A DNA stretch of 64,000 nucleotides from Balanoglossus misakiensis (lineage: Eukaryota > Animalia > Hemichordata), in contig CM082582.2 in NCBI GenBank assembly GCA_040954595.2, positions 5,068,303 through 5,132,302 of the forward strand, given 5' to 3'. Shown piece after piece: positions 373 through 64,000 of this stretch (its first letter is position 1; every line of letters begins with the position of its first letter). A program made the position numbers and the translations under genes. Below the pieces are notes generated by a model. The model was not told the DNA's origin and did not search any database. It saw nothing but the letters and a program-made list of their open reading frames with translations.

Positions 373-4081
<3,709 letters not shown>

Positions 4082-5408: not shown

Positions 5409-5594
5409 TACTGTAAAACGGGTTATTTTCACGACAGGAAATTTCCCTTATATCAAAAGAGGCAACTGTTACGCGATTATTTATTTTCGCATTCTCGTAT
5501 TTCACTAACTGCATCGTTATCTCCGAAAACATTTTTCGCGACTTCCACGTTATTTTGGCTCTCGCGTAATTCGCGAAAATAACCTGTTTTAAGT
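5409..5594. mobile_element. Family C MITE (TA-flanked, CTGTAAAACG ends; Tc1/mariner-like)
   Basis: TACTGTAAAACGGGTTATTTTCACGA ... TCGCGAAAATAACCTGTTTTA inverted ends; CpG-rich against a CpG-poor background. Confidence 0.65.
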
Positions 5595-6675: not shown

Positions 6676-7199
6676 TATGAAGAAAGTGGCACATTTTTTG
6701 CCTGTACTGATTTTCTCATTGTTATCCCAAGTATCCCATTTGGGTAGGGTGACCATGGTTCTTTGTGAGGTTATTTGAAAAGTGCTGCAATATTTATACT
6801 ATATGAAAGAATGACAAGTTCCACAACAAAATATCTATGGCATGCCACCAACATGTGTACAAAGTTGGTGGTGCAAAACAATGGGAAATATTTTAGTCTC
6901 TCATTGCAATGTATCCACCAAGTTATCACTGACCAAACCGATCGTAGAGGGCGCCCTTTAGTGAACATTGGTACGGTTGTGCAATTTCAGGACTCCTGGT
7001 TTTACATTTTTTTCAAATATTTGTCAAGATATCATTCGTACCACCATGACCGTGTGCGATAAATTATAACTGATAGCTGGTTTTCAACAAAATGATTGTC
7101 ATTGCGCTCTCCATACAGATTCAATACCTAATAGTACCTATCCAACAAATTTGGTCGTTTTGGAAAATGCGATATTAACAGATTCACAGACGAAGAGGC

Positions 7200-7558
7200 A
7201 GAAATTAACCCCGTACAGTGAACACGTTTTTTTTTCAGTCTCGGTTGCCCAAATTCCTCTGTTTCTTCCAAGAAATCGAGACTAGTTTTTTTCCGCCCTC
7301 GGTCCACCCCTCAGAAAGTAATGGGTTTGTCCTAAAGTTCCTTGACCCGGAAGCAGTACTTTGTTTGGGTGGTGCCTCGGTAAACGTGTCTTGTTCTGAG
7401 AAACAGTGCACTCCCATTGGTGGGAGTGTTATCGACGATGTGTACGTCCAGTTGAAATCCAGTTCACAATTGACAAGATCACTCAGAGTTACGCAACGTT
7501 TCATCCAGTTGGCAGATTGTGTCGCAGAAGTGGGTGAATTTGAAACACGGTAGTTTAG
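7200..7558 (+). promoter_or_regulatory. Probable promoter and non-coding first exon of the I9 prodomain-only gene
   Basis: Locally CpG-rich; GC box CCGCCC 7293-7298, ETS CCGGAAG 7347-7353, ATTGG 7416-7420; perfect donor AG|GTAAGT at 7559 that can join the acceptor TTTCCTTTCAG ending 8394, 17 nt before the ATG. Confidence 0.55.
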
Positions 7559-8106: not shown

Positions 8107-8298
8107 TACTGTAAAACGAGAAATTTTTGTGAACTTCGCTAGAGCCAAAAATAACATGAAAATAAGTAGTCACTAAAGAACAATTTGTACAATAGAATAT
8201 TTTTTGGTGATAAGAGAAAGTGAAATATAATTGTTGTGTAAAAGCCTCTGTTGTTGTCGCGAAAATTTTCTGTCACGAAAATTTCCCGTTTATCAGTA
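8107..8298. mobile_element. Family C-type MITE
   Basis: TACTGTAAAACGAGAAATTTTTGTGA ... TCACGAAAATTTCCCGTTTATCAGTA inverted ends. Confidence 0.65.
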
Positions 8299-8411
8299 TC
8301 AGTTATCCAAAAGTCGATATATATACCTAATATTAACTTCCCTTTAACAGTGCATGCATGCCCAATATATCTTTCAAAACCAATTTCCTTTCAGAAAAAC
8401 AAAGTTTGATA

Positions 8412-9904
8412 ATGGTAGAGAGAGCAATCCAGTTCTTTGTTTTGCTGGCAGTAGCTGTAATGGCTGTGAACAGTAATGAAAAGACAAGAGAGACACCAGC
8501 TCCTGTGTATGAACATGAACCCAAAGACCGTGTTGAAGGAGTGTACATCGTCAAACTAGAGGTTGGTGATAGATATGCTTTAGAATTATGATGGATTAAT
8601 GTACTGCTTAGTAGTACATGTGTGTGAGTGTATTTGTTCTGCTTAAAGGGACAAAGTCTCTCTCTCGCTGCCCATTTTCCACTAATTATGTTTGATACAA
8701 GACACCGATTATGCTATTCTACATGTGGATATGTAGTGAATCAACGTTCGACCACACACACCTTCTATACCATTTATTTATTTTGGGCGAATTTTTACTC
8801 TCATATCATACAAGCGGGATAAAAGTTGTATGTAGTTGAATGTTCATTCACTACATATACACATGTACATTAACATAAACGGTGTCTTGTATCAAATATA
8901 ATTAATTGGAAGAGAGCAACGAGAGAGAGACTTTGTCCCTTGAATAGTAATGTCTATCTCAGTTAGTCACCAATACCCTGTGATTATAAAACAACTTTTA
9001 TGAGAAATGTAAAATGTCAACACAATGCATTTTATCTAATGATTAAATGTGTTATAATTTATTGTCAAATTTATCTCTTTTTTTTTGCAAGTACAGCACT
9101 CCTGCGATGAGGCATGCTTCAATGATATCATCGAGAGATTTACCGACAGAGCAAAACGTGATGGTTTCCCAGTTACCGTAACACACAGGATGGCATCATC
9201 GATGAAGATGTTTACTGCAAAAATGTCCCGAGAAGCTGTAGAACTGGTAAGTGTGGGGTTTTTTTTGCTAATGGGAATACTTGTATCACTTGTGATCACG
9301 CCAAGGAAATTTTTGGTCTAATTTTAAGTGAGTTCAAGTCATGTGTAGTGGTTGATATGCCCAAAAATGTAATGTTGAATATAGTGAGCTAACAGTCTGA
9401 GCTGTAATCATAGAAACATGTTCAAGAATGCAAACTGAAAACAATTCAACAGTAAAAACTTTCCTACTTAGCTGTCCACACAGTTCAATCTCTAGGTTAT
9501 GAATATCAGGACATACAGCCATGGAGAGTCAGGTGGTGTGAAAAGATTGAGCTTACCCTGCTCCGTAGCATCCATACATGTAATCTTTGAGAGTTAGTCT
9601 CAATGGAGACTGTCTAGTCTAATAATATCTCCATAATCCGTGGTTTATGTGGTTTTGATGTAGAGCCATGTTGATTTATTTCTTTTTTTTTTCTAATGGA
9701 CGGTATCCCAGGTGTTAGTACCATAATAAAAAAATAGATTCAATTGGAGTTGATTCGTTTTCTTTGAAGTTTTTGAAAATAATCATCTTGCTTTCTGAAT
9801 TTTTTTAGCTTCGATGGATGGATAAAGTGGACTTCATTGAAGAAGACCAGATTGTGTCTATTGATGATGGTGAAGGAATGGGCGTCGGAGGGATGGGTAT
9901 CTAG
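8412..9904 (+). CDS. Secreted stand-alone subtilase-propeptide (Inhibitor_I9) protein, PCSK9-prodomain-like, 131 aa
   Basis: Three coding exons 8412-8561, 9097-9246, 9809-9904 (TAG), both introns GT-AG phase 0. Protein: MVERAIQFFVLLAVAVMAVNS signal peptide, then RVEGVYIVKL, AKRDGF, FTAKMS, EL|LRWMDKVDFIEEDQIV, the hallmark motifs of proteinase-K/PCSK9-type prodomains. Stop follows a short Gly/Met tail. Confidence 0.85.
8643..8944. mobile_element. Long-TIR palindromic MITE with TTAA-type flanks and AGGG...CCCT ends (Kolobok-like)
   Basis: TTAA-AGGGACAAAGTCTCTCTCTCG ... CGAGAGAGAGACTTTGTCCCT-TGAA; inner arms TTTGATACAAGACACCG / CGGTGTCTTGTATCAAA and ACATGTG.ATATGTAGTGAAT / ATTCACTACATATACACATGT. 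Confidence 0.75.
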
Positions 9905-10079
9905 GCAGAGGGTGATCCTGGAAAGACACTGGGATGAACACAGGCCACGAAAAGTCAACCACTTGCGAACACCCTTGGAGTCTGTGGACCACTATGATTA
10001 AGGCTTTAACGCAGACTTCAGCATGAAAGCTGTTATTTCTTTTAATATTAACATTAAATTTAACATTCTCCTTTGACAG

Positions 10080-10231
10080 TACAGTCAAACCTGTCTGCAG
10101 TGGCCAGTCAAGGGAATTTACCAAACTGGCCTTTATAGACAGGTCACAAGTAAAAGTTATTGGCGACAAAGTGGCCACTATAGAAAAGTTTCCACCACAT
10201 AGTGTTGGCCACTGACACAGGTTTGACTGTA
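10080..10231. mobile_element. Tc1/pogo-like MITE (TA-CAGTCAAACCTGT ends)
   Basis: TACAGTCAAACCTGT ... ACAGGTTTGACTGTA perfect inverted termini with TA flanks. Confidence 0.8.
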
Positions 10232-10665
10232 TTTCAATTCCACTCAGTTGATTGCCCGGCTTAATATAGTTTTACAAATTAAAAGTTATCTTTAAATATA
10301 TTCATACTTTGTGCTGGTAGTTCTTTGTTAGGGTTTGGCAGCTATCATGCCCAGAAATGATAAATTTGGAATAACGGCGTTTTTTATGCATTAATAATTC
10401 TCATGTTACCATCAATTCCTGCTTGTCTTCTACATATGCATTATTCAAAGGTCCAGAACAATGACGTTATTATACCAATTTTCTGAAAAAAAATAGCAAT
10501 TTGCAGCTACCATTGAATGATACAGCAATACTTTTGAATGACTGAACAAAATATTGTGCAGCTGTTTATTGATGGCAGTTTAATGTTATTATTTTTTCAA
10601 TGGTGATTGTTAAAATATTACATTGTTAGAATTATTAGCTGTTCCTGCCACTTTGCCTCTATGCA

Positions 10666-10756
10666 TCAACCCTTTCACCACCATGGTTTGATCCAAATCA
10701 ATTGTTTTCTGCAGTAAAGCTGGACCTCTACAGAGGAAAACGGGTGAAAGGGTTAA
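10666..10756. mobile_element. Family A MITE, in the presumed 3'UTR of the I9 gene
   Basis: TCAA-CCCTTTCACC...GGTGAAAGGG-TTAA. Confidence 0.8.
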
Positions 10757-11204
10757 AAAGCAATACAATGTAGTATTTGATATGTGTGTGAAAGATGTAA
10801 ACTACACCATGTGGAGACATAGTTAAAGTTTTATTTCTCGAAAGTTGGTGTCTTTTGCGTACTGATGATTTCTGATGAAGACACTTCACTTTGCAACAAA
10901 TGCGTGTACATTGTATTTCGTAATTAGCTGCATTGAATGAACGAGGTTTAATTGAATTTACGGCAAATGCAGAAGTAAAGAATGTCTATATCCCAAGCAT
11001 GATGGGTGTTATTTACAATCAGCCAGTGTTCCAGTTGTATCAGAGTAGAAAAACTGCCAAAAAAGAATGTATGGTAGTTAGACCAAAGCAAGTATCTGAA
11101 AGTCATACCAGTATCAACCTTCCAATATTTTTGTGAGTAGAAAGATTCAGCATCATTATTAAAAAAAAGTAATGTGAAAGGTTTTCATTTCCAGAGGAAT
11201 GTTC

Positions 11205-11210
11205 AATAAA
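11205..11210 (+). terminator. Candidate polyadenylation signal of the I9 gene
   Basis: AATAAA followed by GT/T-rich sequence (GTGTGTT, TTTATTT, TGTGTG). Confidence 0.5.
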
Positions 11211-12479
11211 TAATTATTCTATCCAAATACAAGTGTGTTCTAATTTATTTAATGTGTGCTTGGGATGATAGCACATCAAGACCCTTTCCCACTGTGCCAA
11301 CAATTTTCAACAATTTACAAAGTGTTCCCAGATAATGCACTTATCTACACGTCAGTCATACTGGAGATGGCATTGATATTATTTTTAGCTTGCCCTTTCA
11401 AATAATACTTTATGAATAACTGACAATGCAATTTCTCTGCCGTTGACTCAGTATACCATCAAAATTACACTGATTGTTATTTTTATCCCAAAGATTGTAC
11501 TAAAACGTGGACATGTATTTTATTTCAAGATACTAGCAACTTTAGCATAAACTACTCACATCCCAAATTTTACTAAAGTGAGTTGATTTTAAAAATATGA
11601 TGTAAGTACATCTTTGATGTGAATTACAAGTTAACCCAGATCCCTACAAAGTTTACTCCAAAGATTTTTTTGGTGAAAACCCTGTTTTTTTTATTGTTTT
11701 AAAAAAAAGACCCCCCCCCCCAACACACATTAACTTTGAGGATTATCATTTTCTGAAAATCTGTCCCTTGGCGAGATACGCCCCATATTTGGAAAGTTTC
11801 TACTGTATTCAACTGTTAATTGACTTTTCTTCCTTTTTAGTGTGATGTTTAGTTTACAGTTAGCATGTACAGTACTGTCAATTACATTTATATCCCAAAT
11901 TCTTTTCAATTTGCATCCTTGGTTTCTCTTTCTAACCCTGAGGGTGTTTAGATTCAAATGTAATTATATATGCATATAACAAAAGCATGTTTAGATATTA
12001 CAATTATAAAAAACCCTAAAATACTATATCCGTAAACTTTCAGAAACAAACACTTCTGTGTAGAGCTAACAGTATTCTCAGATCTATTTATGTTATTTTA
12101 AATTTTCATTAAATTTGACTAACAATAAGAACCTATTGTAACTGCACTACAGTAAGATGTGCTGGTTGGGGTAGGATGTTTATAGCTAAATAAGCTCGGC
12201 TACATTATAATTTGATACACGTCACCAACTTTCCATATAATCAGGTCCATATTGACTAGGGGGCACCAGTGTACAGCAGGGACCCAGAATTATAGTGTAG
12301 CAAACTTAGGGCTGTGATGGAGTCTAAGTCTGTACACAATATAGGTCTGGCATGTAATGTATACCAGCCAAAATCTTATCTGTGACTACTTTTGGCTCAA
12401 GGCTTTACCACTTTTGTTTTTTCTGGAGTAAACAAGCCTTGCTAGTGAGACTATGTAGGACATTGGCAACAATTGAAGA

Positions 12480-12606
12480 TACATACATACATACATACAT
12501 ACATACATACATACATACATACATACATACATACATACATACATACATACATACATACATACATACATACATACATACATACACACACACATATACACAC
12601 ACACAG
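12480..12606. repeat. (TACA)n microsatellite grading into (CA)n
   Basis: Direct reading; explains the HTYI/MYVC ORFs. Confidence 0.98.
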
Positions 12607-15702: not shown

Positions 15703-18700
15703 TTACTTCTTACGGGCAAACATAGTTGCTACTTTGGTTCTTGATGCGGACGATTTGTCTTTCAAGGCTCCAAGTTTGTTGAAGAATTTTGATTTTGCGT
15801 CTTCAGGTGCCGTTCCACCGCTTCCCACACTGCTGACACTGCTACTTCTGTGAACGAGTCAAAAAGTCAGGTTGGGAATAAATTTGACACCTTTACAATA
15901 TTGGTTCTGAACAATCTTAGGCAACATACATGTACATTATAACACAAGTGCACTTTGCTTCTAAAAGATGGATTGCAAAGGAGATTATATTAAATAACAA
16001 TACCAGTTTCAATCTTTACTTGAGTTAAATAAATTGCCAAAACGAATAAAAAATGAATAATTATTTTCTGGGTAAACAACAAATCAATGCTTTTTTAATA
16101 TACACAGAATTTTTCCAAAACACACAACATTCTAAGATTCTGTGATGACATTTTATTTCAAAATGCGATCAGCAAACATCACAAACACCCACCTCTCCAT
16201 ATTTGATGGTCTGCCATCCAGCTTTGTTTCATAGTCTTTAATCATTGCGTTGACAACCTCCTGTTATGAGAAGATATAACAAAGTTAGAAATTTTATTAT
16301 TGGCTGAATAATATCTGTGTCAAACAAACCCGACATGCTCTTTTCTGAATGATGGTCAATTTCACTTCTATGTTAAATTATTTACATATAAATCAGTTCA
16401 ATACTTGATAAGAAATAGAAACTTTGCTATTAGTGTTACATACATCATGAAGACTTTGCAAAATCTCACATACTTTAGGTGATTTATTTTCCAATCAATC
16501 CTCTCAGTATATTGTTTCAGCTAACGCAAAAATTCCACAATTTTTTTCCAAACCATCAGTAAATGTTATTTACTTGTCAAAAGTCAAATCACATCACAAT
16601 GAACATGATATGCGGATGAACAAATGAACTCAAAGAAAACTTCATGACATGATAAATAGTACCACGATAAGCTAGTGCTATTATGTATTACACATCACTC
16701 AAAATATACGACTTCCACTTCTAGTTGTGAGAATGTAAATAATTACATTAAAAAATAATGTCTACACATATGTTATTTAAAACCCCATAAAAGATATGGG
16801 AAGAAGTGAAATGCATGGAAGTGGAAATAAAGTGAGAATGGATTAGTGATAGGACAAGACAAGACAGTACAGAACAGAGAGGAGGTTAGAGAAACATTCA
16901 GAGACGTACATGTACCTCGTGTTCAGGAGCAACTTGCTCTAAATCTTGACGGAGACATCGTAAACCAGGCAGCAGACATTCCCTGATTAAATCATCGGAT
17001 ATAACTATGGATACAGTTAAGGATTGCAACCAAACACTTTTAAAAAATAAATTAATGTTTACAATGAAAAAGTATGTACTTACCATTATGCTGTCATGTG
17101 ACTCTTTTGTTTTTTTATCATGTAGTTTGTATGACTTGCACATCAGCCCACTACTTCTATCTCTAACTAATAATGGGCCAGTATATTTAACTTTTCAATT
17201 TTTTTTCAGAATTTTTGTTGTTGTTTTTAGTTTTGTCCCTTCTTTCACCCAATCTGCGACAAAGAGTATGGTTGTCGCCATTTTGTCTGTTGTTGGAACA
17301 GCACACCGCCTTACGCCATTGGCTGTATACAATTTTTGTAACCAGAGTCACTGGTTGGCAAACGCACATAAGACGATCGCTCCCCTTTAAGTACAATCTC
17401 AAGTTAAAGTTAATCAGTTTAATTTTCACAAAAATACTGATGGTCAGAGTGGCCTACTCCATTATATTTATTAAGTAAAACCAGTTCACTTTCAAACCTC
17501 ACAACTGGTGCATTTAGGCAAAGGATACAGCAACATGACAGAGCACTGTAGGCTTCAAAGAGTTGCAACGCGATATCGGATTTCTTAGTGTCATTTGTAG
17601 TGTTGTTATTTGCATGTGCTATGGCCGTCAGTCTGGGCAGTACAACTGTCAATCAAAACAAAAAAAATATGATGTCAATATATTACTCTAGAGGGCGCTG
17701 CACACGAATAATTGTGCTGTTGTGTTTGTGTGACAGAGAAAATGTAGATTTAAACTGTGCCCAACTTCTAAGAAAAACTATTCTTTGACTTACAATCATC
17801 TCTAAATTTCGGCTCTGAATTGGGTCCAACTCTTCCAAACGTCCTGATAAGTTCTACCGTGAGTGAGTGTTGGTCTTTGTATTGTGGATCATCCAGGAAT
17901 GATTGGAACTGTACATACACTCTTTCTAACATCTGAAAACAATTCAATGTTCAGTCAGTATCAACAATCTAGTTGTCTGTGGTAGGAATGAGAGATTATC
18001 AGCTATTGTAAAACAAAGATGCCAGGAAACGTGAAGAGTACACACAATGTTGTACAAGAAGTGGGACCACATACCTCTTTTTGAGTTGTATTTTCTAGTA
18101 TCGTACCAAATGCTGGTATTGTTGCTATTCTTACAGAGCTGTAAGAAAATAAATCCAACCATAATCAAATTTTGTTGTTGTTGCAGTGTAAACCTCAAAA
18201 ACAATTAACACCTACACACACATGACACCATCTTGCATCCTTAATATTATTCAAGTTAGCTGACTCGATAATTAATAGGAAGAACATGGTGAAATTGATA
18301 TGCATGTAACTGATTATCATTGAGCATTCGTCAAATACTAAACAGAGGCAGTGCATCCAGACTTACATTTCAGGGTCTCCAGACAGTGTAATAAGTGCAG
18401 GAACAACCCTTGTAGACACCAGTGTCTCGTTCACACCCTTCACAAGCAATTCAAACATCCTGGCAGACGCAGCTCGCACCAACGCCGAAGTATGCACCAC
18501 TCCGTTCCACAGCACCGTCATCAACAACTCATGGTAAATAGGATTGGCACTGAAACACAAAAGGAAAGTTCAAGGGTCAGTATCTGTGAGGTCAGAGGTC
18601 AGGATCTGGTGCTTGGCCCTAAGTGAGTCTCTATGTCGCAGTATCCAGTGTGTAATTCTCATGAGCACTGTGTACCACCATTCACACTTGTTGACTGCAA

Positions 18701-61711: not shown

Positions 61712-64000
61712 GGTAAATCGGATTCATGACCACACTCATCTGATTTTCGCGACAGAATGACTCCGTTCATCGCTTCTCTTCATTGAAATGTGTTCTACGA
61801 ACAGATGCCACAGTGATCGATTCGGCCAGTTGTTTAGTTGGGACACAGGCGAGGTAAAAGTCAGGACTCAAGGCAACCATTTACAATACTATCTCGTGCT
61901 AACCCAGGGGGATTAGCTATACTTGTACGCCTTGTTGAGACTGTAAACAGCACTGGTGACATCGCCTGATACCACTCAACGATGTGTAGAAACACTTTTC
62001 AAAACCGCATTTCGAATCAGCACTCATCATGAAAAATATCCCAGTGGTATTTTTTAACAAAAGGTATACTGTTTAAACACACACTGAGAGAAATACTGAG
62101 AAAAGGTTTAGCCTTCCGTGAGATTTCATTTCGTAATGATCAAGTGAAACACCGTCAACTCGTCAGAAGGAAACGCGATGAACTAAACTCACTGCAAAAT
62201 CATGGATTACAGAGATTTTTTTTCGAATTGTAGGCCTGAAATGGGGAAATGTTTCTGATTCTTAACAGAGTTGAGAAGCTATAGGCCTGAGAGAACCAGA
62301 GTTTCGCCCGAGTCAAGCGAATACAGATACCGAGTTATGTATGTGTGTGCGTGTGTGTCTCACTCATTGTGCAAATATTAGCGATTAGTAACATGATACA
62401 TGTCGCTGCAACAGGTGGGAAAAATAGCTTGTTGAAAAAAAACTTCCAGGGCCTTCAAAAACGGCACATTGACCAAGGGAGATTCGATTAATAAATATGG
62501 ATACGATTTTGTGGTCGCGGCACCATATTGAGCCAATCATATTTAGCGCGTATGAAAGGAAGTCTGTGGTGCCGCTGAATGCTGGGCGCGCTCGCCGGGG
62601 CCAGACTGGCCGCGCTTTCCAATCATAACCTTCGCCACTTGTCGTGCATTGCTTCATTTCTGCGTCTTTTTTCCTGCATAAAATAACAACAAACAAAAAA
62701 ATTGGTAATGCATTAAGTGCTTTTTTTTTCTGGCCAAGCGCTAAGTTAAACAATGCTATATTGAGAGGAGATTTTTTTTTGAGCGCAGAAGAGGAAAAAC
62801 GTTCGGTGGCCGCTGAGTGGGCGTCGATAATGACTGGCGAAACAGCTGTAGTAATATAGATCTGTTACCCCCTGCTCCCCGGTTTCAGGCGCTGTTGCAA
62901 AAATGTAATAAACTTTCGCCAAAGACGGGCTCGATTCGACCGAAAATGAACCGAGTTCGCCCAGAAAAGTTCCGCGAAAGTCCGTCCTGCGTAAGACCAG
63001 TAGCCATGTTTTTCCCCGCACAGCGCGCGTCATAGCATTCCATACAGTGCGCCATTGCAGGCCATTGTTCCACGCGCAGCGCCACTTTACTTTCCTCGAC
63101 ATACCGGCGAGAAACACGCGTTAAACTATTTTCGCGGCGTTTTGAATTGATTATTCCGAGCGTTATCGAAGGGCAAGCTTTAGATCTTGTGATACACGAA
63201 AGATACGGATATCGATCTAGCCGTGATCTGTTTGGGGAGGTCTGGTACTTTTGGCTTAAAAAAACGCCCGGCTATTTCAGCGTGTATACACCTCAATGCA
63301 TGGCGATTCAGCGGCGTTTCAATGGGGGGTTCTGAATATGGTTTCTTGATCAAGAACCTGCCTTCGGATTTTATGCGGTTTTAGAGCAACAGGTTACAGC
63401 TGGAAATCGGCAGCAAACGGTCGAAAAAAGGCGAATTTGAGGGTATTGCGGTTTTTTCAGCGCTGTTGTTGACAGCAGCTGCAGCCTGCAGTCAGGTTGG
63501 TTAAAAACGCCGAGAACTAAAACACTGTGTGGGAGTAGGTATACTATAGCACTGTGTGGCCAGTGGTACAGCTGGGAGAGGTCAGCGTTGGAGAGTCCCC
63601 CTAAAAACTTTTTAAAAAGTTCTAATTGGGAAAATTTTATGTGTGTACACCGTGTTGTGGGAAAGGGGACATGTGTCCATTGCGGGTTTCCGAAGCCTAG
63701 TACGTGCGCCCATCTGTATGAGTGGGCGTACAGCTTTTGTGCCGCAATTCTTGCGCTTTTTATGGCTCGGGCAGAACACTGAAAACTACACGGGCTATAT
63801 GCCGATGTGTACTGCCTTAATCTCCCTCATTTTTCGCTAATATTTCTGGCTGTGTAGAAATCACAAAGAGAGAGACACTGCGTTAATTTTTTTAAACGAG
63901 TCTGAAATTAAAGCGCCGAATCCTGACTGCGGGCCCCGTCGGTCGGCGGACCCGTGAGTTCCCAATGATCGAGTAATGTAAATCTACTAAACGATTCTGT

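Follow-up and report, generated by a model that had tools for sequence, protein, structure and literature searches.

A predicted prodomain-only gene of the PCSK9 lineage, conserved in two acorn worms

A small gene on the plus strand of the 64-kb Balanoglossus misakiensis window, the whole stretch of DNA that was analysed, comprises three coding exons of 150, 150 and 96 nt (Table 1). All exons are in phase 0. The donors are GTTGGT and GTAAGT, and the AG acceptors are preceded by pyrimidine tracts. The spliced exons give a 131-aa protein with one stop, TAG at 9902–9904, and the G+C content is 44–46% in the exons versus 33–35% in the introns. The product is laid out as a probable signal peptide, an I9 prodomain, a 12-residue tail and the stop. 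The sequence-only reading had described three clean exons, and the coordinates, the splice sites and the single-stop frame were all reproduced. The candidate non-coding first exon further upstream would probably splice to the AG at 8393–8394, 17 nt upstream of the ATG, and contributes no in-frame ATG; a TATA-like box at 8318 is an alternative to this exon. The upstream neighbour, PHAF1 (Pfam PF03676), has its own stop near 4075. The downstream neighbour is a convergent gene with its 3´ end near 15703, for which Pfam gives a weak HEAT match only and which we take to be RELCH by name. PIGN (Pfam PigN) is located further downstream. Both flanking genes, PHAF1 and the convergent gene, are complete and unrelated to the prodomain-only gene.

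Table 1. Features of the prodomain-only gene (positions in the window)
Feature	Position	Strand	Description
Candidate non-coding first exon	7200..7558	+	ends at a strong donor; predicted from sequence and from a GC and CpG rise at 6900–7500
Coding exon 1	8412..8561	+	residues 1–50: probable signal peptide, short linker, AP-x-YE motif, first I9 strand
Probable signal peptide	8412..8474	+	residues 1–21; likely cut after V19-x-S21
Intron 1	8562..9096	+	535 nt, GT-AG, phase 0; contains inverted-repeat element 8643–8944
Coding exon 2	9097..9246	+	residues 51–100: I9 core including the C53-x3-C57 pair
Intron 2	9247..9808	+	562 nt, GT-AG, phase 0, after residue 100
Coding exon 3	9809..9904	+	residues 101–131 and TAG stop
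P9–P1 segment	9839..9865	+	residues 111–119: E111 and D113 (predicted helix caps), V116 (P4), D119 (P1)
Tail past P1	9866..9901	+	12 residues, acidic, Gly-rich; occupies the place of the mature enzyme N-terminus; no WGLDR motif
Probable 3´ untranslated region	9905..11210	+	candidate poly(A) signals ATTAAA at 10053, 10278 and 11158; AATAAA at 11205

Several further elements were observed in the window. The 302-nt element in intron 1 has 129-nt inverted arms that are 83% complementary, is present in no second copy in the window and, by its sequence, looks like a miniature inverted-repeat transposon. A small element with 27-nt terminal inverted repeats (93%) lies at 10078–10234, within the probable 3´ untranslated region. 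At 8107–8298 and 5409–5591 lie two short elements that are related to each other and resemble each other in their inverted ends, one of them directly upstream of the prodomain gene, and a (CATA)n microsatellite occupies 12479–12590 between the two convergent 3´ ends. The GC-richer end of the window (62385–63826) contains several overlapping frames of 100–160 codons, four of which were tested and gave no Pfam match. The HEAT-repeat gene read as RELCH (start about 33070, minus strand) and PIGN (about 34460, plus strand) are arranged head to head about 1.4 kb apart, a pairing that is presumably also present on human chromosome 18.

Against a profile made from the prodomains of 72 bacterial proteases, the spliced protein scored 41.0 bits, compared with at most 7.1 bits among 1000 shuffles and −1.2 bits for the reversed protein; the prodomain likeness is not due to chance. 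When the opening 20 residues of exon 3 were used as a tblastn query on 72,556 plasmid records, four weak matches (E 2–5) were returned. Two of these were examined and are proteinase-K-type S8 precursors, matched at the end of the prodomain; the other two are Vibrio records with the same score. The Vibrionaceae protein set was reached through exon 3 itself and is a biased sample, and 37 of 77 bacterial proteins gave a hit at E below 0.01. Over 97 aligned residues, 28 are identical between the spliced protein and a Salinivibrio precursor. In this comparison exons 1 and 2, which lie outside the search query, were outscored or equalled by 23 of 2000 shuffles, and exon 2 alone was not significant (239/2000). 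The assignment to the I9 family made in the sequence-only reading stands in Pfam at the level of the whole protein, through the Ptychodera flava counterpart described below, which passes Inhibitor_I9 (PF05922) with 27.2 bits against a gathering cut-off of 21.2 over residues 45–118; it finds no backing from single exons, which matched nothing when scanned one by one against Pfam. A PDB sequence search with single exons likewise gave no match. Two other candidates were discarded: a GlcNAcase family, the sole NCBIfam match, which scored 12 bits where the cut-off is 1000, and PRA-PH clusters at up to 0.87 in an Atlas search with exon 2 alone, rejected as chance.

The catalytic domain was searched for across the whole window. 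Searches of all six frames with strict motif patterns around the S8 Asp, His and Ser residues gave 0 matches each, and a profile of 72 bacterial proteinase-K-type catalytic domains gave a best E of 12 among the 3433 six-frame segments, which bears out the earlier statement that no DTG, HGT or SGTS exons were found between the stop and the convergent gene. With the prodomain profile of the same 72 proteins, the two top-ranked of the 3433 segments were exon 3 (E 0.0012) and then exon 1 (E 0.014), and the exon 2 segment was absent at E up to 100. No subtilase gene and no prodomain-less partner gene was detected in the window with the catalytic-domain profile. Nine acceptor-like sites were counted from the stop to the convergent gene, one being exon 3's own. 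Only one further site opens a frame of 50–350 nt with at least 40% G+C, and it lies inside a small inverted-repeat element; apart from one 70-nt frame within this repeat element, no coding-like exon was found 3´ of the stop. A weak likeness between exon 3 and the region around the catalytic His (E 22 by profile, E 0.067 pairwise) was rejected: in the comparison with the Salinivibrio enzyme the tail did not outperform shuffled sequences, of which 1742 in 2000 matched or beat it. As predicted from the sequence, the 131-aa protein is not a protease, the catalytic triad domain being missing from the gene and from the window, and, on genomic evidence, the prodomain has a gene of its own instead of being cut from a protease precursor.

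A counterpart was observed in a second acorn worm. A search profile built from the three exons and two bacterial guides found two proteins among 53 candidates. One of the two is the Ptychodera flava RefSeq entry XP_070574127.1, a 131-aa 'uncharacterized protein' from a computed gene model, whose record already holds a precomputed Pfam I9 match. Pieces of bacterial-type precursors that matched the search guides (P0004 and P0005) were dropped. XP_070574127.1 aligns with the spliced protein without gaps, is identical at 79 of 131 residues and ends at the identical residue; from sequence likeness, we infer that it is an orthologue. The identity is unevenly distributed: 7/21 in the signal, 3/8 in the linker, 14/21 in the exon 1 core (exon 1 overall, 48%), 33/50 in exon 2, 17/19 in the exon 3 core and 5/12 in the tail. 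Across the I9 core 64 of 90 residues are identical, and the 26 differences include 17 BLOSUM-positive and 8 negative changes. A two-species profile search returned only XP_070574127.1 from 66 candidates, by a word-based method that is insensitive: with exon 2 as query among longer proteins, such a search missed this same 66%-identical protein within its range, so blanks weigh little. A metagenome scan with XP_070574127.1 found no relative among 194 pattern matches. The carriers of the prodomain-only gene found so far are these two genomes.

The P. flava counterpart bears directly on whether the gene could be a relic left by truncation, or else the beginning of a longer S8 gene whose catalytic exons were missed or are distant. 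The counterpart is itself a computed gene model, and coding exon 3 contains six GT sites, one of them a weak GTGAAG at 9870, both of which leave some room for such a gene. Against this, the frames are open and the splice sites canonical, no catalytic exon was found in 64 kb, complete and unrelated genes lie on both flanks, and the second genome encodes a gaplessly aligned, 60%-identical protein of equal length and end. Because two genomes that are 40% apart here stop at the same codon, neither a broken gene nor a set of missed exons is likely, and we regard a relic or partial gene as extremely improbable.

The structure was predicted with AlphaFold for XP_070574127.1 and not for the window's own spliced product, from a 49-row alignment of which 45 rows are bacterial prodomains. 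The mean pLDDT is 89.7, with a flexible tail at about 60. The strands (40–49, 77–82, 88–92 and 107–114) and helices (55–71 and 95–101) form the propeptide fold of I9. The best Foldseek match of this model is the PCSK9 prodomain (E 4.9e-7, rmsd 1.3). In VIA, the PCSK9 prodomain is again the best match, with a Z of 14.9 and an rmsd of 1.4 Å over 92 residues (28–119 on 60–152), followed by a bacterial propeptide (12.3), a fungal propeptide (11.0) and POIA1 (1v5i_B, 8.3). The Atlas's own model of the P. flava protein is nearest to a chordate PCSK9 cluster (TM 0.79). The profile of the two animal proteins also retrieves PCSK9 prodomains first from the PDB (E 0.002), without gaps over 40–116 on 73–149, and then pre-pro proteinase K; these top matches span E 0.002–0.007, and residues 7–121 of the P. 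flava protein align with 2–107 of pre-pro proteinase K. When the window protein is placed by hand on this profile alignment, it shares 23 of 77 residues with human PCSK9, in agreement with the gapless match of 23 in 80 given in the sequence-only reading. By family and predicted fold, the 131-aa protein is an I9 prodomain of the PCSK9/proteinase-K type. Mesd/Boca proteins, which are chaperones of LDL-receptor-family proteins, also match the P. flava model (Z 8.6–9.5), at 4–8% identity; this probably reflects just a shared common fold.

The intron positions agree in part with those of PCSK9. Exon 2 of human PCSK9 encodes residues 70–133 in frame (PMC10643364, as listed in its Table 3). With the offset of +33, the phase-0 intron 2 of the acorn-worm gene (after residue 100) falls at the same codon and phase as the second intron of human PCSK9 (after residue 133). 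The position of intron 1 differs, at 83 in PCSK9 numbering versus 69 in the human gene as given in the same table. By a hand estimate, one match between 2 x 2 introns over about 276 sites would arise by chance in roughly 1–4% of cases. The PDB and fold matches, together with the intron 2 coincidence, argue for a PCSK9-like ancestry and suggest that the gene was duplicated in part from a PCSK9-like gene of an animal and did not come from microbes. Since the likeness in sequence is accompanied by the retention of a PCSK9-lineage intron, the comparison indicates descent of the predicted protein from a real prodomain and not convergence. The earlier proposal of a stand-alone, probably secreted I9 domain from a PCSK9/proteinase-K-like gene is thus upheld by the gapless P. 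flava counterpart, the fold and the shared intron.

The N-terminus and the pre-pro region are consistent with a secreted protein. A hydropathy peak of 3.14 is located at the N-terminus (a probable signal peptide), V-x-S occurs at 19–21 in both acorn-worm proteins, and a helix spans residues 2–23 in the P. flava model. The pre-pro region, including the AP-x-YE segment, is retained whole. The product is probably secreted, with a cleavable signal peptide, and removal of the predicted signal would leave a 12.6-kDa acidic domain with a pI of about 5.

The structural alignment of the P. flava model places residue 119, which is D or N across the two acorn worms, at PCSK9 Gln152 (P1). In the computed alignment it also falls on what we take to be the last propeptide residue of proteinase K. 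The PCSK9 cleavage site is VFAQ152, with a required Val at P4, as described in PMC8551645. Residues E111, D113 and V116, which are identical in both acorn-worm proteins, are located at P9, P7 and P4, and the P9–P1 docking segment falls in the best-conserved part of the protein, the exon 3 core. E111, D113, V116 and D119 are in register with E209, D211, V214 and D217 of the PfSUB1 propeptide, in which E209 and D211 are reported as helix caps and V214 as the S4 residue (PMC6993865). The helix-capping E-x-D and the substrate-like P4–P1 segment are both present, as in stand-alone I9 inhibitors. The C53-x3-C57 pair, which is conserved, is a possible disulfide. Full-length bacterial enzymes run past P1 into a WGLDR motif, which does not occur in the acorn-worm tail; the tail is of equal length in both species.

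These features suggest, with moderate confidence, that the prodomain-only gene with its P. flava counterpart encodes a secreted inhibitor of the animal's own proteinase-K-like subtilases. The gene would have originated when the 5´ exons of a PCSK9-like gene of an animal were duplicated and a new stop was acquired 12 codons beyond the cleavage site. Following removal of the signal, the 12.6-kDa domain would bind a mature subtilase by setting its sheet against the two helices on the enzyme's surface. E111 and D113 would cap these helices, and V116 to D119 would occupy subsites S4 to S1, as a cleaved propeptide does. The tail would lie across the prime side, where it might be removed by clipping, with the classic product complex as the result, or might hinder cleavage by means of its acidic residues. 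The outcome would be that proteases without their own prodomain are re-capped.

Own enzymes are favoured as the target because the stand-alone I9 proteins SUB1-ProM and TrI9 act on subtilases of the same organism; all the characterised stand-alone I9 proteins named in the literature examined inhibit subtilases, these two an enzyme of their own organism. Own enzymes are also favoured because the proteinase-K-like genes of a sea urchin are reported as much expanded, with 62 loci (bioRxiv 10.1101/802215), and a PCSK9-like enzyme of a sea cucumber is reported to degrade collagen (PMC5897022). Several observations count against an inhibitor of own enzymes. No protease gene adjoins, unlike in the case of SUB1-ProM, and the window gives no pointer to the target. 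Known inhibitors finish close to P1, which the acorn-worm tail does not, and only 5 of its 12 residues are identical between the two species. The case is further limited by the small number of genomes, two, in which the gene is known, and by a structural model that is of the P. flava protein and draws mostly on bacterial rows.

The secreted protein could alternatively serve in defence, blocking the proteinase-K-type and other subtilases of sediment bacteria and fungi and not the animal's own. Probable secretion, the clear likeness to marine Vibrionaceae protease prodomains (28/97 against Salinivibrio; hits in 37 of 77 bacterial proteins) and the report that heterologous subtilisins can be inhibited by propeptides (PMC6993865) would all fit this function. 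However, the Vibrionaceae sample is biased, having been found through exon 3, and the structure is nearest to animal PCSK9. The gene is present in a single copy in the window, and its gapless, conservative change between two species is unlike an arms-race pattern. We consider a defensive function unlikely.

The retention of the entire pre-pro region, including the AP-x-YE segment, would also be expected of a folding chaperone or escort that acts in trans, within the secretory pathway, on a subtilase with a missing or weak prodomain and forms a stable complex as in PCSK9, whose prodomain is described as acting in trans and remaining bound post-secretion (PMC8551645). Among the serine proteases of sea cucumbers, some are reported to have an I9 domain and others to lack it, a remark that is based on transcriptome products and thus possibly on partial ones (PMC5897022). 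No prodomain-less partner gene lies within the 64-kb window, and stand-alone I9 proteins are mainly described as inhibitors in PMC6993865, which leaves a chaperone role quite improbable.

A re-use of the fold for a task other than protease binding, such as receptor or lipoprotein binding like the surface of the PCSK9 prodomain, could account for the features that are not in PCSK9, namely the C53-x3-C57 pair and the conserved tail, and the same fold has other roles, as in Mesd/Boca (Z 8.6–9.5 at 4–8% identity). The docking segment P9–P1 is nevertheless the best-conserved part (17/19 in the exon 3 core), and such a re-use is very improbable.

The inhibitor proposed here can be compared with known prodomains and propeptide-like proteins. 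The human PCSK9 prodomain (residues 60–152; PDB 2w2n_P and 2p4e_P) shares the fold over 92 residues, the P4 Val and the codon and phase of intron 2. It is cut from a 692-aa precursor, whereas the acorn-worm prodomain is a separate gene with a 12-residue tail past P1. The acorn-worm protein also lacks the extended acidic segment with which the PCSK9 prodomain begins. Yeast PBI2/IB2, Pleurotus POIA1/2, Arabidopsis SPI-1 and Trichoderma TrI9 are likewise small products that consist of the subtilisin-propeptide fold alone. The fungal and plant inhibitors are described as having no significant sequence likeness to true propeptides (PMC6993865); in contrast, the acorn-worm protein is animal, begins with a probable signal peptide and shows plain homology to the propeptides of proteinase-K-type enzymes.

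Two apicomplexan proteins, Plasmodium SUB1-ProM and Toxoplasma TgMIC5, are likewise described as free propeptide-like products that pass through the secretory pathway and control a subtilase of the same organism. A signal peptide is present in SUB1-ProM, and its helix caps and P4 residue lie in the same register as in the acorn-worm protein, but SUB1-ProM is reported to adjoin its target genes and its tail to end before P1, whereas the acorn-worm gene has no adjacent protease and its chain runs 12 residues past P1. The earlier statement that free-standing I9 proteins occur in fungi and plants holds for PBI2, POIA1 and SPI-1 and was incomplete, the secreted SUB1-ProM of Plasmodium being already described. 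By domain, predicted fold and gene layout, the acorn-worm protein is grouped with the stand-alone I9 proteins, and inhibition would follow by analogy. Animal propeptide-only genes are described for the I29 family (CTLA-2alpha, crammer and BCPI), whose products inhibit or stabilise in trans (PMC4089206). Their fold is unrelated and their targets are papain-like cathepsins, and the comparison is by analogy only.

The stand-alone I9 proteins named in the literature examined (PBI2, POIA1/2, SPI-1, TgMIC5, SUB1-ProM and TrI9) include none from an animal, and a literature search whose scope excluded subscription papers and bioRxiv supplements found no animal example. Free propeptide-like subtilase inhibitors have been described in fungi, plants and apicomplexans; an animal case would fill a gap, in parallel to the I29 proteins CTLA-2 and crammer for a second protease class. 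Free propeptide inhibitors of cathepsins (I29) are described in animals (PMC4089206), so the principle is not new. Judged from the two gene models, the prodomain-only gene of the PCSK9 lineage is real and conserved in two genomes, with precedents outside animals. Tentatively, acorn worms may have the first animal stand-alone subtilisin-propeptide inhibitor, derived from PCSK9-like 5´ exons: a secreted, self-folding cap with a conserved bait tail that sets extracellular proteinase-K-like activity, for example in matrix remodelling or regeneration.

Whether the known stand-alone proteins originated by descent from a true prodomain or by convergence is debated. The gene offers a testable way to study the control of proteinase-K-like enzymes, of which invertebrate deuterostomes have many. 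It also provides a natural free-standing form of the PCSK9 prodomain fold, useful for structural comparison. In the Atlas, the P. flava protein has its top feature match (0.91) in a 97-aa cluster without a name, whose 64 members are recorded as tailed phages; these may represent stand-alone I9-like proteins in phages.
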